Below are positions 14,662-53,674 of a stretch of 64,000 bases of DNA, piece after piece. The notes beneath the pieces were generated by a model. That model did no database searches. It was not told the origin of the DNA and saw only the letters and a list, made by a program, of their open reading frames with translations. Within the stretch, counting starts at the first letter, position 1; each line of letters opens with the position of its first letter. Source of the stretch: an uncultured candidatus Porisulfidus sp. (GTDB lineage: Bacteria > Pseudomonadota > Gammaproteobacteria > Poriferisulfidales > Poriferisulfidaceae); the NCBI GenBank assembly GCA_965116025.1, contig OZ220480.1, forward strand, positions 1,592,495 through 1,656,494, written 5' to 3'. Both the position numbers and the translations under genes were made by a program.

Positions 14662-15239
14662 GCGCTGCTCTCGGCTTGCGCTCCGGCGCCCGGATGGGGC
14701 GCGATGGTTCCGGTGTGCACTCTGCTACCGTTACCGGGCCCATGTTCGAGGTAGAGCTCGAGATTCGCCCGGATGACGTCGAAAGCGATGACGTCCCAAG
14801 GAATATCGTCCGGGGCGACGAGCTCGGTGCGGGAAGATTCCGGTCCGGGCACGGATTTTCCGTCGACCAGCGTTCCGCTGTATATCGCGTAGATTTGCGA
14901 GATATGCGGAAGGCTATGCAAGGAGAATAACTGAATGCCCGCGATTTCCGCGGTCGCTTCCTCCATGCATTCGCGGCGAGCGCATTCCTCCACGGTCTCA
15001 TGCTTTTCCATGAAGCCAGCGGGCAGCGTCCACAGTCCGAGCTTTGGCTTGATGGCGCGCTTGCAAAGCAATATCTTGCCTTCCCACTCCAAAATGGCGC
15101 CCGCGACCATCAGAGGATTCTGGTAAATGATGTAGCCGCAACGTCCGCAAATGTTGCGCCTTTTGGTGTCGCCGGGTGGGATTCGGTATTCTAGGCTGCC
15201 CGCGCCGCACTGGGGACAGTAGAGGGGTTTGGCGTACAT
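14658..15239 (-). CDS. NUDIX hydrolase with N-terminal zinc ribbon
   Basis: Nudix box GFMEKHETVEECARRECMEEA, plus CPQCG...CGRCG at the N-terminus. Confidence 0.88.
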   Translation of the reverse strand: MYAKPLYCPQCGAGSLEYRIPPGDTKRRNICGRCGYIIYQNPLMVAGAILEWEGKILLCKRAIKPKLGLWTLPAGFMEKHETVEECARRECMEEATAEIAGIQLFSLHSLPHISQIYAIYSGTLVDGKSVPGPESSRTELVAPDDIPWDVIAFDVIRANLELYLEHGPGNGSRVHTGTIAPHPGAGAQAESSA

Positions 15240-15261
15240 ATGTGGGCCTCTCGTATCGCTG

Positions 15262-16107
15262 TCAAGCGTCGCCCGTGGCGACGGGCCGCTCGGGATCCTG
15301 GATCCATTCGCTCCATGAGCCGACGTATAATCGTCCCGGTTTCAGTCCCGCGTGCGCCATGGCCAAGAGATTATGGCAAGCGGTCACGCCAGAGCCGCAG
15401 GAGTGGCAAACGGGTCGCTCGTCTTTGGCGAGCGCCTCGAATCGTTGCCGTAGGGCCGCGGGAGATTTGAAGCGCCCGTCCTCGCCAAGATTCTCCTGGA
15501 AAGGCATGTTCCGGGACCCGGGAATGTGTCCGCCCACGCGATCAAGCGGCTCTTGCTGTCCAGAAAAGCGCACGGGAGCGCGCGCGTCGATGAGCTGGAC
15601 CCGATTTTCGCCCAAGGCGTCGACGACCGCCTCGGTGGTCATCCACGTGTCTTTCCGCGCTGAGACGGGATAGCGCGCTTTCTCTCTGAGCGGCGGCGTC
15701 TCGTCCGATACCGGGCGGTTTTCTCGGATCCATTGGAGCCAGCCGCCATTGAGAAGCGCGGTAGCTGGATGTCCCGCCCATCGCGTCAGCCACCACATCC
15801 GACCGGCGATCGCGCCGCCCATGTCGTCGTAGACCACGACTTGCGAATCCGTTCGAATGCCGAGGGATCCAAGCAGGGTAGCGAAGGCGTCTAGAGAAGG
15901 GAGCGGATGTCGCCCGCTACTCGCGCTTGCGGGAGAGGCCATGTCTTCGTCCAAATGAACGTAGCGCGCTCCGGGAATGTGGCTTTCCCGCCATGCCTCT
16001 CGCCCGGCTTCCGGTCGTTTTAGGTCGAAGCGGCAGTCCAGCACGACAAGCCCGGGTTTCCCAAGCGAATCCTCCAATCGCGCCGTCTCGATCAAGGTAT
16101 CGTGCAT
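15262..16107 (-). CDS. sseA: 3-mercaptopyruvate sulfurtransferase (tandem rhodanese)
   Basis: 281 aa. The active-site loop CGSGVTAC is typical of the MST type of rhodanese. Confidence 0.85.
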   Translation of the reverse strand: MHDTLIETARLEDSLGKPGLVVLDCRFDLKRPEAGREAWRESHIPGARYVHLDEDMASPASASSGRHPLPSLDAFATLLGSLGIRTDSQVVVYDDMGGAIAGRMWWLTRWAGHPATALLNGGWLQWIRENRPVSDETPPLREKARYPVSARKDTWMTTEAVVDALGENRVQLIDARAPVRFSGQQEPLDRVGGHIPGSRNMPFQENLGEDGRFKSPAALRQRFEALAKDERPVCHSCGSGVTACHNLLAMAHAGLKPGRLYVGSWSEWIQDPERPVATGDA

Positions 16108-26380: not shown

Positions 26381-26672
26381 GGTGAGATTATATCACTCGG
26401 TCGCCGTCACGCCTCGACGCGATGACTTCAAAGGTGTCTTGAGCGACGATTTGATTGACGGATTGAGCGTTTGAATGTAATTAAATAACATATGATTCAT
26501 GTAAGTATTGATGGCTGACGTGGTCTGGGTAAGGCTCGCCCATCGACTCGAAATAGCTTGAGGAAGCGCATCGGTGCCTGGATATGTGTATATAAGAAAG
26601 CGTCTAATATAGAAATTATTGGCATTTTGTGCCAAAATATGGCTCATACATCCACTAGAGATAGAGTTCTCT

Positions 26673-28043
26673 ATGCTATTACGCTTTGGGGTTTCCAACC
26701 ACCGCTCCATTCGCGACTATCAGGAGTTGCATTTGAGCGCGTCCAAACGCATCAAGCGTAAAGGGCTGGCTATCCCCGTCCCGACGCTGAAGGAGGACGC
26801 GGTTCCCGTCGTCGCGCTCTACGGAGGCAACGCGACAGGAAAATCGAATCTAATTAATGCGATGCGCGAGATTCAACAAGCGATTCTTCAGTCTCATAAA
26901 TCGCTAAGTGCCACTGATCAAATTCCTTGGGCCCCGTTCCGGTTTGCCGATTCGGATAGCGCGAAGCCGACGCGGTTCGACTGCACATTCGCGGTAGTTG
27001 AAGAAGCTATGGAGCAAAGCTCGCGCGCGCGCGAAAGCGTGTATGAATATGGTTTCGAGTATGTGGACATGGAGTTTCGGCGCGAGTGGCTGTATCGGAT
27101 AGTGCGCAATGAACGACAAAGCACCCAGGTACTGTTCGAACGCGAGACCGAGGATGGCGAGATGCGTGTGAGTTTTGGCGGTCAACTCCGAGGCAAGAAC
27201 AGGGCGATCGCCAACCTGACTCGGCCAAACAGCCTGTTGCTGTCCGCCGGCGCTCAGAACAATCATCCGCTACTGACGGAACTGTATCGCTATTTTTCCG
27301 AGCGGTGGGAGGTTATTCCGAATTCGGGAGCTATGGATGGCACTTCTGTCGCGAGGCGTCTGTCCGACTATGAGCATATGGAGCGATTGCTCTCGCTGGT
27401 TCGCCAAGCCGATATCGGGATAGTTGACATTGATGTCGAAGACGAGGAAGTCAAGGATGATCATGCAGAATTCGCGCGCGACCTCGCTTCCTTGCTTTCC
27501 AAGCATTCTAATCGACGGAGTAAACATGACCAGCTCGAAGCGTCGTTGGCCCATAAAATGTTGCGCAGGAAGCGGCTGCGCTTCCTGCATTCAACAGCGG
27601 AGAATCGTGTTGGGGCTCTCGGATATTCAATGGAAAGCAAGGGAACGCGCTCTCTGATTTCGCTTCTTATTCCAACGCTGGAAGCGCTTTCCCGCGGATC
27701 GCTTCTCGTGATCGACGAACTGGATACCAGTCTTCATCCGAATCTGGCGCGGGCGTTTGTCTCGCTTTTCGCGAAGAGATACTCCAACCCGCATGGCGCG
27801 CAATTGGTTTTTTCCACTCATGACGTTACGTTGCTCAGTAGCGGCATCCTGAATCCGGACGAGGTCTGGATGGTTGACAAGAATAGCATGGGAGAATCCC
27901 GGTTTACGCCATTGACCGAGTTCAAATTGCGCTCGCGTGACGATATCGAGAAGGCGTATCGACTGGGACGGTTCGGAGGCGTTCCGTTTGGCGATGATTT
28001 TTTCATCAATTTCCGCGATGATCGGGTTTTGGCGGAGTCATGA
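26673..28043 (+). CDS. AAA_21/ABC-type ATPase (RloA / OLD-ATPase-like)
   Basis: ORF 26619..28043 trimmed to ATG 26673. Walker A GGNATGKSN, Walker B LLVIDELDTSLHP, and D-loop/H-loop region VFSTHD. Confidence 0.8.
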   Translation: MLLRFGVSNHRSIRDYQELHLSASKRIKRKGLAIPVPTLKEDAVPVVALYGGNATGKSNLINAMREIQQAILQSHKSLSATDQIPWAPFRFADSDSAKPTRFDCTFAVVEEAMEQSSRARESVYEYGFEYVDMEFRREWLYRIVRNERQSTQVLFERETEDGEMRVSFGGQLRGKNRAIANLTRPNSLLLSAGAQNNHPLLTELYRYFSERWEVIPNSGAMDGTSVARRLSDYEHMERLLSLVRQADIGIVDIDVEDEEVKDDHAEFARDLASLLSKHSNRRSKHDQLEASLAHKMLRRKRLRFLHSTAENRVGALGYSMESKGTRSLISLLIPTLEALSRGSLLVIDELDTSLHPNLARAFVSLFAKRYSNPHGAQLVFSTHDVTLLSSGILNPDEVWMVDKNSMGESRFTPLTEFKLRSRDDIEKAYRLGRFGGVPFGDDFFINFRDDRVLAES

Positions 28044-28672
28044 GGCGCGCGCGACGCGTCGCACGACGCCCCGCCACGCGTTCACCCGCTATTCGAATCG
28101 TGGTCGCCACGGAAGGAGAGTTGACCGAACCAGAATATATCAAAGCGTTCAGTCGAATCCATGGAAATAAATCCGTGCAGGTCGTTCTGGCGCCAGTCGG
28201 TGGTGACCCGCGAGCGGTAGTCGAGCGGGCGATCAGAGAGTTGGAGAAATCGAAGCGGGACCGACTTGCGGCGAACGATTCCATATGGGCCATGTTCGAT
28301 CGGGATAACCATCCGAGATTCGACGAGGCGAGAGATCTGGCACGTAACAAAGGTATCCAGCTGGCCATATCGAATCCGTGTTTCGAATTGTGGGGAATTC
28401 TTCATTACCAAGAGCAGGACGCTCATCTTGAGAGCCGCGAGTGCCAGCGACAGTTTGGGCGATTGTGCCCAGGTTACAATGCTGGAACTGGCAAGGTTTT
28501 CGACGATCATGAAGCGATCCAACAGCGCCATTCGGATGCCGTCAAAAGAGCCACCCTGTTGGCTCGGCGCAGGGAGGAAGAAGGGAAGCCGGGAGGGAAT
28601 CCATCTACGACCGTTCATCTACTCACGAAATTGATACGGAGTTTCCGGCATGGTGAGAAATGTGGTGAATGA
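28040..28672 (+). CDS. RloB-like (Toprim-type) protein
   Basis: 210 aa with ATGA overlap to the ATPase gene. Motifs IVVATEGELTEPEY, MFDRDNH and ISNPCFELW are typical of the RloB family. Confidence 0.8.
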   Translation: MRRARRVARRPATRSPAIRIVVATEGELTEPEYIKAFSRIHGNKSVQVVLAPVGGDPRAVVERAIRELEKSKRDRLAANDSIWAMFDRDNHPRFDEARDLARNKGIQLAISNPCFELWGILHYQEQDAHLESRECQRQFGRLCPGYNAGTGKVFDDHEAIQQRHSDAVKRATLLARRREEEGKPGGNPSTTVHLLTKLIRSFRHGEKCGE

Positions 28673-30330: not shown

Positions 30331-31890
30331 GTGACCGCGGACATCCATTCCGAACGGATCCTGGTGCTGGATTTCGGCTCGCAATACGCGCAGCTGATCG
30401 CCCGCCGAGTGCGCGAGGCGGGGTGCTATTGCGAGATCTACGCTTGCGACGCGCCCGAGAGCCAAATTCGGGGATTCCGGCCCCGAGGCGCGATCTTATC
30501 GGGTGGCCCGGAGACCGCCACAGATCACGCTCACCCGCCGGTTCCGGACGCGATCCTCGAGATGGATATCCCGGTGCTTGGCATCTGCTACGGCATGCAG
30601 GTTCTGGCTCGTCGGCATGGTGCCGAGGTGCATGCCGGGGCGCGCCGGGAATTCGGATTGGCGACCTTGCGCCCGAGTGAGGCGCATCCGCTCATCGAGG
30701 CGCTGGGCGATGGCGAGAAGCTCGCAGTATGGATGTCGCATGGTGATCACGTCGACACGGTGCCAGAAGGGTTTCGGGTGATCGCGTCGACCGACAGCGT
30801 GCCGATCGCGGCTCTGGCGCACGAGACGCGGCCTTGGTTCGGCCTGCAGTTTCATCCAGAAGTCACGCATACCCCGGGTGGGCAGAGATTGATCGAGCGT
30901 TTCGCGCGGGATTATTGCGGTTGCCGGGGTCTGTGGCGGCCCGACGCGATCATCAAGGACAGAATTGAGGCGGCGCGCGCGCTGGTAGGAGAAGATGGCG
31001 TGGTGCTGGCGCTGTCCGGTGGCGTGGACTCCTCGGTCGTCGCGGCGTTGCTCGCGCGAGCTATCGGGGATCAGCTAACATGCATTTTCGTGGACAATGG
31101 CTTGCTACGCGCTGGCGAAGCCGAGCAGGTGCGCGAGACTTTCGCGGGGCACTCGGGGGCGCGGTTGGTCCAGGTGGATGCTCGGGAGCGCTTTCTTTCC
31201 GCCTTGGTTGGCGTGACGGACCCAGAAGAGAAGCGGAAAACCATTGGGCGCGAGTTTGTCCATGTGTTCCAGGAACAGGCCGAGCGATTGCCAAATGCGC
31301 GATGGCTGGCGCAAGGCACGATTTACCCGGATGTCATCGAATCCGCCGCGGCCGCGACTGGCAAGGCTCATTTAATAAAGTCGCATCACAACGTCGGTGG
31401 ACTTCCGGAAACGTTGCGCCTGCGGCTGATCGAGCCGCTACGAGAGCTGTTCAAGGATGAGGTGCGATCGGTCGGGCGCGCGCTGGGCTTACCGTGCGAG
31501 TTGCTGGAACGTCATCCGTTCCCTGGCCCGGGCTTGGGCGTGCGCGTCCTAGGCGAGGCGCGGCCCGAATACGTGGTTCTGGCGCGCGCGGCGGATCGGA
31601 TTTTCATTGAGGAGTTGCGCGCTTGGGATCTGTACGACAAGGTGGCGCAGGCGTTCGTGGTGTTCTTGCCGGTGCGGGCCGTCGGAGTCATGGGAGACGG
31701 CAGGCGTTACGATTACGTTGTGACGTTGCGGGCGGTGGAGACGCAGGATTTCATGACCGCGCGCTGGGCACGCCTGCCGGACGAGTTTCTGGACCAGTGC
31801 GCGCGGCGCGTCATCAACGAGGTTGACGGTATCGCCCGAGTATGCTACGACATATCGGGCAAGCCGCCGGCGACCGTGGAGTGGGAATGA
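30331..31890 (+). CDS. guaA: GMP synthase (glutamine-hydrolysing)
   Basis: GATase domain (GICYGMQ), PP-loop SGGVDSSV, and the C-terminal ending typical of GuaA. Confidence 0.96.
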
Positions 31891-31973
31891 TTCCACGTCT
31901 GGCACCGGCAGGCATCAAACAGCATATAGATTCAATCAATGCTGCCATGTTTCACAATGAACGGCATGCATCG

Positions 31974-32162
31974 ATGACTCAAACAATTTCATTGGATAGG
32001 ATTCTTACGGAAACGGATGGGCCGTTCACTCGAATGGGCGATAGGCGATCGAAACTATCCGATATCGCAATTGTTGTCGAAAAACTCGGCCGTCCGCATC
32101 AGATGCCGACTGAACAAGTCTCAGCCACTGTTCTCGACAATCTTAAGAAATTTGGCAAATAG
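31974..32162 (+). pseudogene. C-terminal fragment of a TatD-family metal-dependent hydrolase/nuclease
   Basis: Tail of ORF 31842..32162. SLDRILTETDGPF...VVEKLGRPHQMPTEQVSATVLDNLKKF matches the last ~60 aa of TatD proteins. The N-terminal ~200 aa are absent. Confidence 0.5.
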
Positions 32163-32409: not shown

Positions 32410-32727
32410 ATGGATCCTATGATAGAGGTTAGAGAATACCTCGATGATGAGGGAAACAGTCCTTATGCCAAATGGTTCGATCATCTGAATGTGGCCGCTG
32501 CGGTCAAGGTCGCGACAGCTGTCCATAGGATGGAGCAGGGTAACTTCTCTAATGTGAAAGGCGTTGGTGCTGGCGTCTGTGAGTACCGAATCTATTTTGG
32601 CAAGGACGGGGACCGGTTGGTGGTGTTGCTGGCGGGTGGCACCAAGAAACGCCAGAACGCAGACATTGCTGCCGCAAAAGGGCACTGGCGCGACTATAAG
32701 ATCTGGAAACGGCAAGAGGTGACATGA
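32410..32727 (+). CDS. higB: type II toxin, RelE/HigB-like addiction-module killer protein
   Basis: 105 aa (alternative ATG at 32419). The pattern IEVREYLDDEGNSPYAKWFDHL...YRIYFGKDGDRLVVLLAGGTKKRQNADI is typical of the killer-protein family. 4-nt overlap with the antitoxin gene. Confidence 0.8.
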   Translation: MDPMIEVREYLDDEGNSPYAKWFDHLNVAAAVKVATAVHRMEQGNFSNVKGVGAGVCEYRIYFGKDGDRLVVLLAGGTKKRQNADIAAAKGHWRDYKIWKRQEVT

Positions 32728-33050
32728 TGGCTTTGACGAAAGATTTTAAGGATACCATTCAGGCACGCGCCCAACGGGATCCGGCGTTCCGCAAGGCCCT
32801 ACTGCAAGAAGGGGTCGAATGCCTGCTTGCCGGTGATGTTGATACCGGCAAAGCGGTGTTGCGCGACTATATCAACGCGATGATCGGATTCGAGAAACTC
32901 TCCCAGGTCTTCGACAAATCAAGCAAGAGTCTCATGCGCATGTTCGGTCCAAAAGGCAATCCCCAGGCGAGCAACCTGTTCGCGGTGATCCAATACCTGC
33001 AGGAGCAGGAGGGCATACATCTGGAAGTCAAAGCCCGGAAGGTGGCCTAG
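32724..33050 (+). CDS. higA: type II antitoxin, HigA-like addiction-module antidote protein (HTH)
   Basis: 108 aa. ...AFRKALLQEGVECLLAGDVDTGKAVLRDYINA...SLMRMFGPKGNPQASNLFAVIQYL is typical of the antidote family. Confidence 0.8.
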   Translation: MMALTKDFKDTIQARAQRDPAFRKALLQEGVECLLAGDVDTGKAVLRDYINAMIGFEKLSQVFDKSSKSLMRMFGPKGNPQASNLFAVIQYLQEQEGIHLEVKARKVA

Positions 33051-33291
33051 GGTGCTGCCAAGAAGTTTTAAATCGGCAATTTTTCGAGTATTTTGAAGAA
33101 TTTTCTGAGCATGGTGTTTTCCGCGCGCCGTAACGGAAAAGGTAGCAAAACCACGTATGGAAAATCGGCGTAATCATGGTATCAGTGGTCGGCGCTCAGA
33201 TACCGCCTTCTGAACGAGCGTAGCGTGGTTATGCTGGTGGGTACTGTTGATCTCGGTGCCTACCCCCATTTCCGAAAAGCGTGTCCTTGTG

Positions 33292-34545
33292 TTATTTCAG
33301 TGCATGCCAACCAGGTACGGCCTTGGTGAACTCTTCTTGAAATGACGGACGTTTGATGTTGTCCTTTTTGACTTTGAGCGCGAAGTCACGCCAGCGAGAT
33401 GGATCACGCAGCACATCAACCAACACATGGTGGACCTTCTTCATCACCTGTGCCTTGCGGGTGTATTCCTTGCGCGGGGCGTTGGTCTTGAGGCTGCCCA
33501 GTCCTGATAAATAGTATTTTAATATCGCCTCGGGATACCTGCCTTCAAGACACTTGGCGGTCTGCAGTTCATAGGTGCCGTCCCAAGCGTAGAAGGGGTG
33601 GCGGCTTCGGGTCAACACCGCCACCGCTTCCTCGTACTCCTTACGGTGCATGCGGATGCGAAGTTGCTCTGTGTCCCAGGCGTTCTCCAGCCGCGCAAGG
33701 ATTTTCACTTCGTAACGCTTCCATTCGGTGACCGTGCATAGCTTCCGAAATGTCTTGTACTTGTCGCAGGTCAGAGGATCGATAGCCTGATCGAACTGTA
33801 GTGCCAGGTAGCGTTCGCGATTGTTGGAGGATTTGACACGCTCGGCAACGAACTGACGCAATTCATCCATGCGGCCTTTTCCCTTGAGCAGTCCTGTCTC
33901 CGCAACCTCCATGGCCCTCTTTCTTTCACCGGCTTTCCAGTGGAAATCCGCCAAGTCGAAATAGTCGGCGCCAGTGGCCAGTTTGCGTTGGCGCAGCTCA
34001 AGATATTTTCCATGGTCGCCGAGGCGACGATAAATGCGGCGGGCGTGGTCGAGTTTCCAGTCCTCGCCCATGGTTTCAAAGGCTTGCGCTAGTGCACGCC
34101 AATCGTCGTTGGTATAACAGGTCGCATAGGCCAAGTCGTAGAGATCGTCGTCAAGCCCGGCATTACTGCTTTCGATATAGGGCAGGGCGTTGTCGAGAAG
34201 TTTTTGCCGGTAGTCTGAATCGATCTTTTTCTGTGAAAGCGCCTGTACGATCTCCTGCAGCATTCTCGAAACATGGATGTCGGCATCATAATCGCCGCCA
34301 CCGTATGCATCCAGCTCGTCCAGATCCGGCGCGAGCTCGGCCCACAGGGCCAGTAGTTTTTCACCCTCGGACTGTTTCTTCTGGCTGGGTGACAGGGCAG
34401 TATGCCTGTTCAGGTAGTCGAGGCATTCACGCCGGACAGCGGGCCGTGAGGCGGTCACGCATAGGATCATATCGAGCAGTTTTGCTTTTGGCGCGGTCTC
34501 CAGCAAAGTGGCTAGTGGATCATCCTGTTTACGTTTTCCCGCCAT
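33292..34545 (-). CDS. hypothetical 417-aa all-helical protein (third gene of the operon)
   Basis: Long ORF in an AT-richer segment, 9 nt downstream of the SEC-C gene. No catalytic motif or family recognised. Confidence 0.75.
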   Translation of the reverse strand: MAGKRKQDDPLATLLETAPKAKLLDMILCVTASRPAVRRECLDYLNRHTALSPSQKKQSEGEKLLALWAELAPDLDELDAYGGGDYDADIHVSRMLQEIVQALSQKKIDSDYRQKLLDNALPYIESSNAGLDDDLYDLAYATCYTNDDWRALAQAFETMGEDWKLDHARRIYRRLGDHGKYLELRQRKLATGADYFDLADFHWKAGERKRAMEVAETGLLKGKGRMDELRQFVAERVKSSNNRERYLALQFDQAIDPLTCDKYKTFRKLCTVTEWKRYEVKILARLENAWDTEQLRIRMHRKEYEEAVAVLTRSRHPFYAWDGTYELQTAKCLEGRYPEAILKYYLSGLGSLKTNAPRKEYTRKAQVMKKVHHVLVDVLRDPSRWRDFALKVKKDNIKRPSFQEEFTKAVPGWHALK

Positions 34546-34554
34546 GATGAATTG

Positions 34555-35577
34555 TTACTTGGGAAGCTGAAATTGAACAAACTGGCCCAATAACGGCAGC
34601 GCCTTCACCCGGTATTCGAAACATAGGGGGCTGTCGGAGACCGGCTCCACCGTCGCCAGACCCAGAAAGTCAGCGAAGTGCACCAGCGATCGCCAGGTGT
34701 AACCGAGGCGCACTGTCTCATCGTCAGAAATGACCTGGCTCGGTGGCGCTTCATCCAACAGCCACGGAAAAGCGCCCAGAAAGGCATCTTCATAAAATAC
34801 TTGCGGCCGCCAGGCATCACCGTAGTGGGTAAGCAAGTAAAGTGTGAACAGGAAGGCGCTCTGCATGAATTGCAACTCAGGATGGCCGTCTCTGTATGCC
34901 CAGTTGAACTGCTCAACATAGGTCCTGAAAAGTTTTGGGTAGATGGCGGTCGTGTCGCCCCCGGTCAGCAGTCGGCGACAATCGCGGCTGAGGATGAACC
35001 GGCCCTTGTACTTGCGAATCAACCCCGCTAGTTCGGCCACAAGGCGGGTGACATGCAGATCGTCAAAATCCTCCTCCTGATTGATGCCGACAAATCGGGT
35101 TCTCTCCTGATATTTCCGTTTACCAAAGTAGGTCAGAGCGGTCTCGCGGCAGAAGTTGCGTGGCAGATTGCCCTTGGCGGTCGGTTTGAGGCCCTGCTCG
35201 CCGATGGCGTCGGTCAATAGCTCAAACAAGGTCAGTATCGGCGCGCCCGAGTTGGCGGGGAGCGCCTCCGGAAAACTTACCAGTCCTTGTGATGTGAACG
35301 GAAAATTAAGCATCTGGTACATCTGCTCCGGCGATAAACCGTGAAATTCGTCCAGCGGTCGACGGTTTTGTTGTTGCGCAATCTGGTCTAGGAATTCCTG
35401 CGCTTCTTCCAGTGAGTTGAACTGCCGGCTTTCGAGCGCTGAGCGCAAGGTCTCGGACATGCCCGCCGTGCCGTGGTTGGATGCGGTGCTATTCTCCTTA
35501 TCCAGGCAGCAGCGTTTGAACTTCTTTCCGCTACCGCAAGAGCAGGGATCATCGCGTCCAATGCTCTGTGTCTTCAT
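34555..35577 (-). CDS. SEC-C zinc-motif protein with a ~300-aa uncharacterised C-terminal region
   Basis: N-terminal DPCSCGSGKKFKRCC (SEC-C motif). The ATGA start overlaps the stop of the upstream ATPase gene. Confidence 0.8.
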   Translation of the reverse strand: MKTQSIGRDDPCSCGSGKKFKRCCLDKENSTASNHGTAGMSETLRSALESRQFNSLEEAQEFLDQIAQQQNRRPLDEFHGLSPEQMYQMLNFPFTSQGLVSFPEALPANSGAPILTLFELLTDAIGEQGLKPTAKGNLPRNFCRETALTYFGKRKYQERTRFVGINQEEDFDDLHVTRLVAELAGLIRKYKGRFILSRDCRRLLTGGDTTAIYPKLFRTYVEQFNWAYRDGHPELQFMQSAFLFTLYLLTHYGDAWRPQVFYEDAFLGAFPWLLDEAPPSQVISDDETVRLGYTWRSLVHFADFLGLATVEPVSDSPLCFEYRVKALPLLGQFVQFQLPK

Positions 35578-36749
35578 ATCACGACCTGCTCGGAGTTGAT
35601 TTCATGCCACGGCAGAACAGTGATGTCGGAGCGATATTGTCGGGTGTCACCACCATAAACCAGCCATGCTTCTCCAGCGGCTTCGCCTGCTAATTTTCGC
35701 CAGAAGTCCAGCCCCTTAAAGTAATCCTTGTTGATGGTTTGCCCGGATTTGATTTCCAGTGGTGACAGTTGGATTCCATGGTCAATCAGCAGATCCACCT
35801 CGTGTCCTGAACGATCATGCCAGAAGTAAAGGTTCGAGGTTTCGCCCGCGTTATAACGAGCCTTGAGCAATTCACTGATGACCCAGGATTCGAACAAGGC
35901 GCCCCGTTGCGCATGGGTAGCCAATTGCTCGCTATTTTGGATGCCGAGCAGCCAGGCGGCAAGACCTGTATCCAGGAAATAGAGTTTGGGCGTTTTGACC
36001 AAGCGCTTGTTGAAGTTCTGGTGATGCGGCGGTAACAGATGCGCGATGTAACTGGCTTCTAGTACGGATACCCAGGACTTGACGGTGTTATGCGTAATGC
36101 CGCAGTCATTGGCCAGCGAGGAAAGATTGAGGAGTTGTCCGGTCCGGCCTGCGCACAATTTCAGGAAGCGTTGAAACGTGCCCAGATCCTGTACCCTGAT
36201 CAATTGCCGGACATCGCGTTCAAGATAAGTACGCACATAGTTTCCATGCCACGGGTGTGGTTCGAGTCCTCGGTCGAAGATGGGAGGGTACGCCCCATCA
36301 AAGAGTATCTTGTCAAGATTTTTGCCAATTTTTCCTGAGTGCTGTAATTCGCCGTAGGTCATTGGTAGCAGCGTCAACAACGCGGCCCGGCCTGCCAGAC
36401 TCTGCGTGATGCCTGATAACAGGCCAAACTGCTGGGATCCCGTCAGGATAAATTCGCCGGGTTGTTGCCGCTCATCGACGCGTGTCTGAAGATAAGAAAA
36501 CAGGGCAGGGCAGCGTTGCGCCTCGTCCAGGATGGCGCCCCCGCTGAATTGATTCAAAAAACCATGTGGATCCGTTTCAGCGAATTCCCTTTGGTCAAGA
36601 TCTTCAAGCGATACATAATGGTGACCGGGAAAGGCATGCCTCACCAGAGTGGACTTGCCGGACTGGCGAGGCCCGGTGACCACAACCACTGGATAGCCAC
36701 TAGCGAAGTGTTGAAGCCTGGATTCCGCGTTCCGGGGGATGTAGGTCAC
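35574..36749 (-). CDS. AAA+ ATPase, COG1373 type (AAA_14 + DUF4143 layout)
   Basis: GTG start. Walker A VVVTGPRQSGKSTL and Walker B GAILDEAQ. The C-terminal half resembles DUF4143 (...LYFWHDRSGHEVDLLI...). Confidence 0.85.
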   Translation of the reverse strand: MTYIPRNAESRLQHFASGYPVVVVTGPRQSGKSTLVRHAFPGHHYVSLEDLDQREFAETDPHGFLNQFSGGAILDEAQRCPALFSYLQTRVDERQQPGEFILTGSQQFGLLSGITQSLAGRAALLTLLPMTYGELQHSGKIGKNLDKILFDGAYPPIFDRGLEPHPWHGNYVRTYLERDVRQLIRVQDLGTFQRFLKLCAGRTGQLLNLSSLANDCGITHNTVKSWVSVLEASYIAHLLPPHHQNFNKRLVKTPKLYFLDTGLAAWLLGIQNSEQLATHAQRGALFESWVISELLKARYNAGETSNLYFWHDRSGHEVDLLIDHGIQLSPLEIKSGQTINKDYFKGLDFWRKLAGEAAGEAWLVYGGDTRQYRSDITVLPWHEINSEQVVI

Positions 36750-36778
36750 GGTGGTTTCTGGCCGCCTTACTTGCCTGC

Positions 36779-36806
36779 ATTATGAGAAGAACAAGCTAAT
36801 TGTCAA
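36779..36806 (-). promoter_or_regulatory. putative sigma70 promoter of the three-gene operon: -35 TTGACA, 16-nt spacer, -10 CATAAT
   Basis: Read on the minus strand as TTGACA (36806-36801) and CATAAT (36784-36779), about 30 nt upstream of the GTG start at 36749. The -35 lies inside the 35-bp palindrome. Confidence 0.5.
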
Positions 36807-36826
36807 TAACATTGACAATTAGCTTG
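36792..36826. repeat. perfect 35-bp palindrome (16-bp arms CAAGCTAATTGTCAAT / ATTGACAATTAGCTTG, 3-nt centre)
   Basis: Read directly. It lies between the operon start and the IS5 remnant. Confidence 0.9.
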
Positions 36827-36849: not shown

Positions 36850-37642
36850 GTGCTGGATAGATGCCTCACGCGGGCGGTGCTGGTTCGGGAGGCGCGGAAG
36901 CGCGGCGTGGCTCTGCGGCAGAGCTACAAGCGGGTCGGGAAAAAGACGCTGATCCTGTGCGGGCGTTACGGATACGCGCGCCAGATGAAGCGCGCGGCGC
37001 GCCAGACGCGCGCCTTGAAAACGATGCTTGGGCGGGTGGTGCGGGACATTCGGCGGAAGGTTCCGAGCCCGGACGCGGCGCCGGAGACGTTGCTGGAGCG
37101 ATCCGAGCGCCTGCTGAAACATAAAGTGCGAGGACAATGGCAAGCCGCGTCGGCGCTACGAGTTCGGCCGCGAGGTCTCGTTCGCGACGACCTCGAAGGG
37201 GAACTGGCTGGCACCGGCGATGAGCCTGGCGGGGAACCCATACGACGGGCGCACGCTGGCCGCCGCGCTGGAGCGAATCGAGTGGCTGGCGAGTCAACGC
37301 CCGAAGCGGGTCTACTGCGATCAGGGGTATCGGGGGCACGGGGTGTCGGGAGAGACGCGGGTGCATGTGGTGGGGAAGATCCCGAAGATGGCGACGCGGA
37401 CGGCGCGGAAGTGGATAAAGCGGCGGGCGGCGATCAAGCCGACCATCGGCCATCTGAAATCGGATCACCGGCTGCATCGAAATCGGCTGAAAGGCCGCTC
37501 CGGCGACCGCGCCAACGCGGTTCTGGCGGCGGCCGGGCACGACTTCGCCAAGCTTTCCCGGGCTTGGAGAAAGTTCCGGGAATTTCTCCTCCGAGGCCGG
37601 ACGCTCGGCCTTTCGAGGCGATTTTCTCTCCGTCCCGCATGA
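36850..37642 (+). mobile_element. IS5-family transposase remnant (N-terminus missing, internal deletion/frameshift near 37140)
   Basis: Frame 1: ...GVALRQSYKRVGKK...YARQMKRAARQTRALKTMLGRVVRDIRRK. Frame 2: KPRRRYEFGREVSFATTSKGNWLAPAMSLAGNPYDGRTL...YCDQGYRGH...IKPTIGHLKSDHRLHRNRLKG. Both are typical of IS5/DDE_Tnp_1 proteins. Confidence 0.75.
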
Positions 37643-37649
37643 CCGGGAA

Positions 37650-37800
37650 CGGATACTTCAGCAACGACTATTCTATTGAGATGGTGAACGAGAAACCCAA
37701 CCCGTTCCGGTGGCGCAAATCGACCGATGACATCCTCGTCAGCATCTGGCGTTTCTGCCTGGTGACAGTCAGCCCCGTCCCGGCTTGCTCGATAACCCGC
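37650..37800 (+). mobile_element. IS630-family transposase C-terminal fragment
   Basis: ...NEKPNPFRWRKSTDDILVSIWRFC matches the conserved extreme C-terminus of IS630/DDE_3 transposases. No upstream catalytic part is present. Confidence 0.55.
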
Positions 37801-37930
37801 GATAGTGGCGCGTCTGGGCGTGCGGGCAAGCTCGCCGTCTGCGCCAACTTCGCGAGCCAGCGCGGCTAGTTCGTCCGGGCATGCAGTTGCTCACGGGCAT
37901 TGCACGTCGGCGCAACTCGCCTTACATTGG

Positions 37931-38309: not shown

Positions 38310-38518
38310 TTAGGCTACCTTTCGAGCTTTGACTTCCAGGTGTATGTTCTCCTGTTCCTGCAAGCAATGGATCACCGCGCGAACAGGTTGCTCGCTTGGG
38401 GATTTTCTTTTGGCCCGAACATGCGCATGAGATTCTTGCTCGACTTGTCGGAAACCCGAGAAAGTTCCTCAAATCCGATCATCGCGTTGATATAGTCACG
38501 CAGCACCGCTTTGTCGGT
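38310..38518 (-). pseudogene. degraded second copy of the higA antitoxin 3' two-thirds (5'-truncated, 1-nt insertion frameshift)
   Basis: The minus strand reads TDKAVLRDYINAMIGFEELSRVSDKSSKNLMRMFGPKENPQASNLFA then, after a frameshift, VIHCLQEQENIHLEVKARKVA*. Manual alignment to 32844-33050 gives 28 mismatches over 207 nt plus one inserted base. Confidence 0.8.
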
Positions 38519-53316: not shown

Positions 53317-53674
53317 TGGTGGAGGTGGCGGGAATCGAACCCGCGTCCGCCAGTTCCTCCTCTTCGGCCCTACATGCTTAGCACCGTCTTTCATCTCGCG
53401 ATCAACACCCGACGGACAGGGCACGATGAACGCCAGCCTGCATGCTTGATTTAACCTTCCGGCTCCAGACAGACCGAATGGCGATCTTGTGTGATCGACA
53501 TCCATATCGGGATCCACAAGCATCTCCCGAAAGGATGACTAGTCGCGATTAAGCGGCCAGTGCGTAGTTGTCGTCGTTGGCAACTATATTTTTCGCAACC
53601 ATTTTTTACGAGATCGTTGCCGCCTCGGCATGCGCCTCGGATTTGGTAACCGCCGTCGAAGCCAAGTCACCCCC
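53317..53674 (-). ncRNA. ssrA: tmRNA (SsrA), 358 nt, tag ANDDNYALAA
   Basis: On the minus strand the 5' end is GGGGGUGACUUGGCUUCGACGG and the 3' end is GCGGGUUCGAUUCCCGCCACCUCCACCA. The acceptor stem has the G3:U pair. The tag reading frame GCC AAC GAC GAC AAC TAC GCA CTG GCC GCT TAA is at 53581-53549. Confidence 0.95.

Follow-up and report, generated by a model that had tools for sequence, protein, structure and literature searches.

The window analysed here, 64,000 nucleotides of contig OZ220480.1 from an uncultured candidatus Porisulfidus sp., carries three adjoining genes on its minus strand, called genes 1, 2 and 3 below and together the triad. We read this locus, at about even odds, as a mobile accessory cassette of two separable, co-transcribed modules with a candidate role in defence. 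One module consists of gene 1 and the palindromic promoter in front of it, and the other of genes 2 and 3; each module was also found without the other. The original prediction, made from the letters of the window, had described three minus-strand open reading frames (ORFs) under a promoter whose -35 hexamer lies inside a perfect 35-bp palindrome, and all of these elements were recovered, including the 4-nt overlap (ATGA) between genes 1 and 2 and the 9-nt gap between genes 2 and 3. The parts of the cassette are as follows.

35574-36749, minus strand: gene 1, ORF of 391 aa with a GTG start; AAA_14 ATPase and DUF4143
34555-35577, minus strand: gene 2, ORF of 340 aa; SEC-C and Y4jL_N
33292-34545, minus strand: gene 3, ORF of 417 aa; all-helical, tetratricopeptide repeat (TPR)-like, without a family
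36792-36826, minus strand: palindrome of 35 bp, probable operator of the gene 1 module
36806-36779, minus strand: sigma-70-type promoter TTGACA-16-CATAAT, 11 of 12 positions matched
33110-33291, minus strand: conserved non-coding stretch of about 180 bp that follows gene 3 and ends the cassette

The homology of the cassette DNA with about 25 other loci spanned 36823 to approximately 33110. As had been proposed, this segment is AT-richer than its surroundings, since its guanine-plus-cytosine (GC) content was 0.52-0.56, compared to 0.60-0.69 on the guaBA side and 0.57-0.67 on the other flank. The ATGA overlap is predicted to couple gene 2 translationally to gene 1. No Rfam match to the conserved tail was obtained, and across the island neither the Rfam nor the tRNA scan gave a match.

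Gene 1 belongs to the candidate family PDC-S01

Gene 1 matched AAA_14 (E = 1.2e-25) and DUF4143 (E = 2.5e-52) in Pfam and carried the Walker A motif GPRQSGKS and the Walker B motif ILDEAQ, which agrees with its earlier description. When it was compared with the PADLOC model PDLC04790 (PDC-S01), residues 1-383 of 391 aligned with profile positions 8-416 of 422 at E = 5.5e-108. By this match gene 1 is a full-length member of the PADLOC candidate PDC-S01, and the claim that the system was undescribed fails for a gene that had already been catalogued, whereas it stands for genes 2 and 3, for which PADLOC, NCBIfam and PHROGs gave no match to a named defence family. PDC-S01 was described as a fusion between an ATPase and a PD-(D/E)XK domain, and its validation was called pending (PMC12988326). 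One survey ranked it fourth in frequency among the predicted defence genes of prokaryotes. The C-terminus of gene 1 is a predicted PD-(D/E)XK-like nuclease with an intact motif, and across the 15 sequences compared the Walker A and B motifs and D..EVD..EIK were conserved apart from single substitutions in a single locus, L032. In addition, a weak sub-threshold match to a helix-turn-helix was located at residues 196-231, within DUF4143.

The triad is divisible into two modules

Relatives of gene 3 were collected from a scan of one genome per species, which gave 71 loci, and homologues of gene 1 from a metagenome scan, which gave 80 contigs. The full order of genes 1, 2 and 3 occurred in about 27 gammaproteobacterial loci of the genome scan, and gene 2 followed gene 1 directly in about 27 of the 80 contigs. 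The co-localisation and common orientation of the three genes in other genomes were thereby confirmed. All three genes were intact in 11 of the approximately 27 triad loci, and the rest had at least one gene split, truncated or deleted. The median ratios of nonsynonymous to synonymous substitution were 0.08, 0.22 and 0.18 for genes 1, 2 and 3, which places all three genes under purifying selection. The triad copies all stem from a single, recently spread cassette, and their number is therefore not independent evidence of a functional linkage.

Genes 2 and 3 had been cast as two dedicated partners of gene 1, and this did not hold. Orthologues of gene 1 with 85-92% identity and the same palindrome stood without genes 2 and 3 in eight contigs (L088, L106, L114, L117, L119, L121, L124, and L140), so that close orthologues occur as single genes in at least 8 contigs, while in the window gene 1 is coupled to genes 2 and 3. 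The homology of these eight contigs ended at window position ~35578-35588, which is the stop of gene 1 and the start of gene 2. Five of them shared an alternative downstream sequence starting exactly after the stop of gene 1, which argues for an exchange of modules and not for decay. Beside gene 1 homologues of 55-66% identity, genes 2 and 3 were never found in the metagenome scan. Genes 2 and 3 occurred without gene 1 in L027, L030, L036, L037, L050, L060, L067, and L071; the gene 1-less pair was present in more distant Gammaproteobacteria and in Desulfobacterota, and gene 3 stood alone in many Desulfobacterota and Chlorobiaceae. Furthermore, gene 1 remained intact in L001, L017, L034, and L059 despite a broken gene 2 or gene 3, and stumps of gene 2 left by deletion were seen in L087, L091, L098, L100, and L110. 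On this comparative evidence, the triad is best described as a fusion of two autonomous modules and not as an obligate three-part system.

The palindrome accompanies gene 1

The two arms of the palindrome are 16 bp long, 100% complementary and separated by a 3-nt spacer. The -35 hexamer lies in the right arm, and its mirror image, the left arm, plays no part in the promoter. The pattern CTAATTG-N13-CAATTAG occurred once in the window, compared to 0 expected from shuffles. It was present once in each of 26 triad loci, always upstream of gene 1, and it was absent from all of the gene 1-less loci examined for it. When the upstream region of the window was aligned with 22 other loci, both promoter hexamers were kept in most of them, and one-base variants were found in a few. 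Inside the operon, every promoter-like site scored lower than the promoter in front of gene 1.

Related palindromes with the core AATTGTCAAT..ATTGACAATT occupied the corresponding place in front of the gene 1 homologues of 55-66% identity that lack genes 2 and 3, and most of these palindromes scored well above shuffled controls. In L139-L165 the related palindromes lay 10-120 bp upstream of the gene 1 homologues, over a TTGACA box. Because the palindrome accompanies gene 1 homologues down to 55% identity, it is probably the operator of gene 1 itself. It had been presented as a feature of the triad and should be reassigned to the gene 1 module. This PDC-S01 subfamily and its operator appear to co-evolve. 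The simplest reading is that it forms a putative dimeric repressor site for the helix-turn-helix region of gene 1.

Gene 2 carries a SEC-C knuckle and gene 3 is a predicted solenoid

Genes 2 and 3 were searched against Pfam, PADLOC, NCBIfam and PHROGs. Gene 2 starts, as had been noted, with a SEC-C knuckle, which spans residues 8-25 at the N-terminus (Pfam, 6e-07). Its body and nearly all of its homologues carry the label Y4jL_N (PF27146), which is a precomputed annotation from a model that the searched copy of Pfam does not hold. Some homologues are named 'YecA family' by NCBI, and the likeness to SecA/YecA is limited to the knuckle of about 20 residues. Gene 3 matched no family in the four libraries and gave only sub-threshold TPR matches, consistent with the earlier view that it has no recognisable catalytic motif.

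The structural comparison proposed for genes 2 and 3 succeeded for gene 3 and failed for gene 2. The AlphaFold2 model of gene 3 had a predicted local distance difference test (pLDDT) score of 78.5 and showed an all-helical solenoid of 22 helices, and the Foldseek search with it returned only generic TPR/HAT/PPR matches with template modelling scores of at most 0.25. On this model gene 3 is a putative TPR-like alpha-solenoid without a family. The model of gene 2, at a pLDDT of 44.5, was unusable. Among solved structures there was no sequence match to the body of gene 1, 2 or 3. Viral contigs yielded no close relative of gene 2 or of gene 3, and plasmids gave no match to gene 3.

The family of gene 3 comprised 487 representative clusters (50% identity) at E <= 1e-3. 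Seven distant relatives (P0270, P0272, P0317, P0328, P0342, P0354, and P0373) carried an N-terminal SWIM zinc finger; they were 23-33% identical to gene 3 and approximately 100-180 residues longer. Gene 2, which adjoins gene 3 in the window, opens with a SEC-C knuckle, which is related to the SWIM finger. The SWIM-fused relatives were rejected as a functional clue, since their neighbourhoods were uninformative. A relationship of gene 3 to DUF6880 was also rejected, with an hhalign probability of 0.4% and no representative matching DUF6880. An apparent swap of gene 3 in L059 proved to be an artefact: its 53% identity resulted from frameshifts, and the DNA was 96% identical to that of L012.

Distant homologues of gene 2 (29-30% identity) were solo genes on plasmids. 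On the Acinetobacter towneri plasmid pTT1-3-1 (L076 4347-6999), a full-length homologue of 29% identity is located 18 bp after hipB-hipA, as if it were the third gene of a HipBA operon. This order is likely shared by other Acinetobacter plasmids with identical matches.

The cassette travels in islets at the 3' end of guaA

In approximately 20 loci the cassette was convergent with guaA and no more than 10 kb away from it. The cassette DNA was 80-90% identical between loci, while the GuaA proteins of these loci were only 50-63% identical to that of the window, a difference which points to horizontal spread of the cassette among marine sulfur bacteria. A repeat of about 250 bp, the putative attachment (att) repeat, was found in 153 copies in 76 loci and in one orientation throughout. 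It holds the reverse complement of the final codons of guaA (..EWE stop) at the aligned junctions; 7 of these 8 carried GTCACTCCCACTC, in one case with a single substitution, and it was degenerate at the distal copy, which has only the B arm. At the true junction the repeat continues into guaA, and at internal junctions into a second arm. Several AATACCATG motifs per repeat occurred in both arms. By these repeats, the cassette is carried by small islets that have inserted one behind another where guaA ends. The guaA 3' end is a known attachment site of integrative elements, e.g., GIsul2 (PMC9376610).

The islets were 1-4 kb in size, each with one toxin-antitoxin or defence module. Arrays were located at L004 5836-14467, L005 5014-11162 and L016 97-12817, and the window retains a residue at 33082-33120. 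The order in L004 was ParDE, triad, HigB with AEP and SNF2, and guaA; in L005 it was triad, VapBC, HipBA and DUF6880-Fic. These arrangements agree with the original proposal of a horizontally acquired cargo among toxin-antitoxin and defence genes. No integrase was detected in the Pfam-annotated neighbourhoods, and a weak tblastn search with two recombinases was also empty. In most other loci a 3' remnant of higA, shorter and in direct orientation, abuts the palindrome, which shows the triad islet to be a derivative of a higBA islet.

Two other classes of element were considered and rejected for the repeats. The integron cassette was discarded because the ~250-bp repeats by inspection lack the attC cores RYYYAAC / GTTRRRY and hold guaA codons, and because no integrase was seen. 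A miniature inverted-repeat transposable element had been suspected from an AT-rich block of 170 bp in L012 that is absent from the window, and this block proved to be an att junction between two islets.

Surroundings of the cassette in the window

The features flanking the cassette are listed below.

30331-31890, plus strand: guaA; in other genomes the islet array that carries the cassette is attached at its 3' end
31842-32162: C-terminal stump of TatD, confirmed
32410-33050, plus strand: toxin-antitoxin pair, higB-like (32410-32727) and higA-like (32724-33050), convergent with gene 3
33051-33120, minus strand: final portion of the islet 'B arm', made up of the 70 bp that follow higA
36850-37870: transposase remnants, weak DDE_Tnp_1 match at 37220-37642
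38311-38518, minus strand: degraded inverted copy of the 3' part of higA, 86-88% complementary to 32844-33049

The higBA module that had been called intact is present as a pair, and homologues of it with 67-98% identity adjoin the cassette elsewhere; its toxin is of the RelE/Gp49 type by a weak Pfam match only. In L002, L009 and L012 this pair is likewise found downstream of gene 3, and it is cargo of the neighbouring islet. The ORF of the TatD stump, which the original prediction had also listed, overlaps the final 49 bp of guaA, and related genomes have the guaA att core exactly there. Positions 33082-33120 matched positions 213-251 of the guaA-type att repeat and are the sole piece of it remaining in the window, in which the att repeats were almost wholly deleted and the upstream flank was replaced by transposase remnants. 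To the left of the palindrome, the window diverged from the other loci in the upstream alignment. By this comparison, the remnants at 36850-37870 take the place of the higA remnant seen upstream of the palindrome elsewhere. Of the insertion sequence remnants reported earlier, a DDE_Tnp_1 remnant was recovered, although with a weak match. The second degraded higA was present and inverted. The 3' two-thirds of higA thus occurs twice in inverted orientation (32844-33049 and 38311-38518), bracketing the cassette and the transposase remnants.

Two further loci of the window were recorded. An AbiL-type two-gene system lies at 26619-28672 on the plus strand, just upstream of guaB, in a low-GC patch of 0.50-0.55. 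Among the ORFs of the window PADLOC reported AbiLi (6e-85) and AbiLii (6e-23), which were assigned to ORFs by reading the translations (Walker A YGGNATGKSN). A transfer-messenger RNA (tmRNA) gene with the tag ANDDNYALAA lies at 53317-53674 on the minus strand, about 15 kb from the cassette; tmRNA genes are a classical integration site of islands.

Neighbourhoods of the modules in other genomes

Outside the triad, genes 2 and 3 were found beside several other genes. DUF6880 lay directly upstream of them in L027 and L060. In L036 and L037 the upstream gene was DUF4062-HATPase_c_4, with a KAP NTPase or DUF2357-PDDEXK_7 beyond it, and this DUF4062 protein is presumably TIR-like. In L050 (8332-12422) genes 2 and 3 were embedded in a type I restriction-modification locus, with hsdS on one side and hsdM on the other, and a second copy of gene 2 was found at 15018-16025. 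DUF6880, which is another uncharacterised helical partner protein, occurred in two settings, namely paired with DUF4172-Fic in islet arrays (L016 6686-9280 and L170 8215-10809) and directly upstream of genes 2 and 3 lacking gene 1 (L027 7564-8925 and L060 1602-2435).

A lone intact gene 3 (76% identity) was found at L003 7001-9254, 79 bp behind a BrxR/WYL regulator and beside a complete Wadjet system (JetABCD), where the homology to the cassette begins 32 bp before gene 3. Elsewhere lone gene 3 copies were preceded by Fic-like and AbiEii-like ORFs, as judged by eye from translations, or, in the case of L052 and L068, by other ORFs. The neighbours of the cassette included HipBA, AbiE, Fic, NERD, DEAD/PLD, and Schlafen-like genes and ParDE. 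PADLOC matches among the neighbour ORFs comprised a type I restriction endonuclease, AbiEii, SoFic, Cas1, ZorD-like and DpdE. The control for this count was the rest of the window, which itself holds the AbiL pair and a methyltransferase; since the AbiL pair contaminates it, no enrichment factor is claimed.

Proposed model and alternative explanations

In the proposed model, module A consists of the palindrome, the promoter and gene 1, whose predicted parts are the AAA_14 ATPase, the helix-turn-helix region and the PD-(D/E)XK nuclease. A dimer of gene 1 would bind the palindrome over its own -35 hexamer and repress its own synthesis, and gene 1 would act as an ATP-gated, DNA-cutting effector. 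Module B, the SEC-C knuckle protein and the TPR-like solenoid of genes 2 and 3, is portable and also stands beside other effector-like genes; by analogy with the abortive-infection protein Rugutis, it may serve as a sensor/adaptor pair for a cue derived from the invader. It could act alone or feed into gene 1. The vehicle is the small integrase-less islets, which have piled up one after another at the guaA 3' end in the company of toxin-antitoxin modules.

A defence role of the cassette is likely, and several observations weigh against it. What the data show is the anatomy, the family assignments, the modularity, the mobility and the purifying selection; the part of the three proteins in defence, the self-repression and the split into sensor and effector are inferred. 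One representative of PDC-S01 gave no protection against T4, T5 and T7 in E. coli. About half of the triad copies contain a pseudogene, which fits defence cargo and also dispensable baggage. The similarity between gene 2 and Rugutis was confined to the first 25-30 residues in hhalign, even with a profile of sequences at 28-100% identity. The neighbourhoods of the SWIM-fused relatives of gene 3 were unremarkable, and in Chlorobiaceae gene 3 adjoins housekeeping genes. In addition, the control for the PADLOC neighbour count was weak, because the rest of the window also gave matches.

It is possible, if doubtful, that the triad is a single integrated machine in which genes 2 and 3 are obligate sensors signalling to gene 1, so that partial loci reflect decay. 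The overlap and short gaps preserved in the inspected triad copies would fit this, as would the upstream promoter that outscores every internal site, the deletion derivatives with gene 2 stumps, and the intact triads under purifying selection in 11 of the ~27 genome loci and in many metagenome contigs. However, the alternative sequence behind gene 1 in five contigs speaks for exchange, gene 1 homologues at 55-66% identity are never accompanied by genes 2 and 3, the pair is kept across Gammaproteobacteria and Desulfobacterota without gene 1, and gene 1 survives intact beside broken partners. This last observation also bears on the quite improbable case of an addiction or stabilisation module, in which gene 1 is a toxic nuclease restrained by genes 2 and/or 3 and acts by post-segregational killing: where gene 2 was deleted or split or gene 3 frameshifted, gene 1 was still intact, and genes 2 and 3 are thus not needed to survive gene 1. 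Gene 1 also stands alone in many contigs, and the proteins are much larger than classical antitoxins. The ParDE, HigBA, VapBC, HipBA and Fic modules on islets stacked with the cassette, the palindromic operator over the promoter, as in type II toxin-antitoxin operons, and the distant gene 2 homologue after hipB-hipA on Acinetobacter plasmids are what such a module would predict. In the triad we found neither the indispensable small antitoxin that defines type II toxin-antitoxin(-chaperone) systems nor a SecB-like gene.

A cellular function outside defence, such as protein targeting or chaperoning by the SEC-C protein or DNA repair, placed in a variable region by chance, is most improbable. The best-known SEC-C motifs are those of SecA, YchJ and YecA, the 'YecA family' label on some gene 2 homologues points the same way, and some gene 3 relatives have housekeeping neighbours. 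Yet the shared SecA/YecA segment does not extend past the knuckle, the distribution across phyla is patchy, pseudogenes are frequent, the cassette sits in att-flanked islets, and its DNA is far more similar between hosts than are their GuaA proteins. We therefore retain the two-module cassette as the working interpretation. A bolder and rather unlikely version is that genes 2 and 3 constitute a new portable two-protein infection sensor that plugs into the PDC-S01 nuclease, DUF4062, DUF6880 and type I restriction-modification; if true, the triad would be the first natural case of how the common PDC-S01 gene is armed.

The locus provides a PDC-S01 subfamily in which the predicted operator is conserved, the nuclease motif is intact, and two accessory genes are naturally present in some versions and missing from others, which makes a ready comparison. 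Genes 2 and 3, which are absent from PADLOC and recurrent in restriction-modification loci and defence islands, are a concrete new candidate module. The stacks at guaA illustrate how small toxin-antitoxin and defence modules can accumulate without an integrase of their own.

Comparison with known systems

The likeness to PDC-S01 is closest, because gene 1 matches the model end to end, has the same domains with an intact nuclease motif, and has close orthologues that occur as single genes. The differences are the coupling to two extra genes outside the PDC-S01 definition and the conserved palindromic operator predicted for this subfamily. PDC-S01 is itself a candidate prediction, and one tested representative did not protect. 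Sensors of the STAND/Avs type also combine a P-loop NTPase, a nuclease and a helical-repeat domain, which is a functional analogy only. They hold the NTPase, the TPR sensor and the nuclease in one polypeptide, whereas here the parts are spread over separate genes and the NTPase is of the AAA_14 class instead of NACHT or NB-ARC. The cassette gave no match to an Avs model of PADLOC.

The islets resemble guaA-targeting elements such as GIsul2 in that the 3' codons of guaA are repeated at each islet junction. They differ by their size of 1-4 kb and in that no integrase was seen, and the two are compared by target site and not by homology. Literature relevant to DUF4143 and defence, y4jL, AAA_14 and anti-phage activity, or DUF6880 was not found.

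Rugutis is a lactococcal plasmid-borne, single-gene abortive-infection protein of 359 aa with an N-terminal SEC-C (PMC11381338, PMC13064643), and its trigger was identified by a later study as the phage terminase large subunit. The single Rugutis sequence compared was recovered from plasmid pUCCL633A (L168:3001-4080). Membership of gene 2 in Rugutis is not supported by this comparison with one sequence, as the body of ~330 residues has no detectable homology. Gene 2 is usually paired with gene 3, whereas Rugutis works alone. Rugutis is nevertheless the closest validated analogue of gene 2, with the SEC-C knuckle alone in common: the knuckle occupies the same N-terminal position (residues 8-26 in Rugutis and 8-25 in gene 2), residues 1-30 are ~50% identical (hhalign probability 95%), and the two proteins are similar in size, with the remainder of each matching neither the searched solved structures nor other Pfam families.

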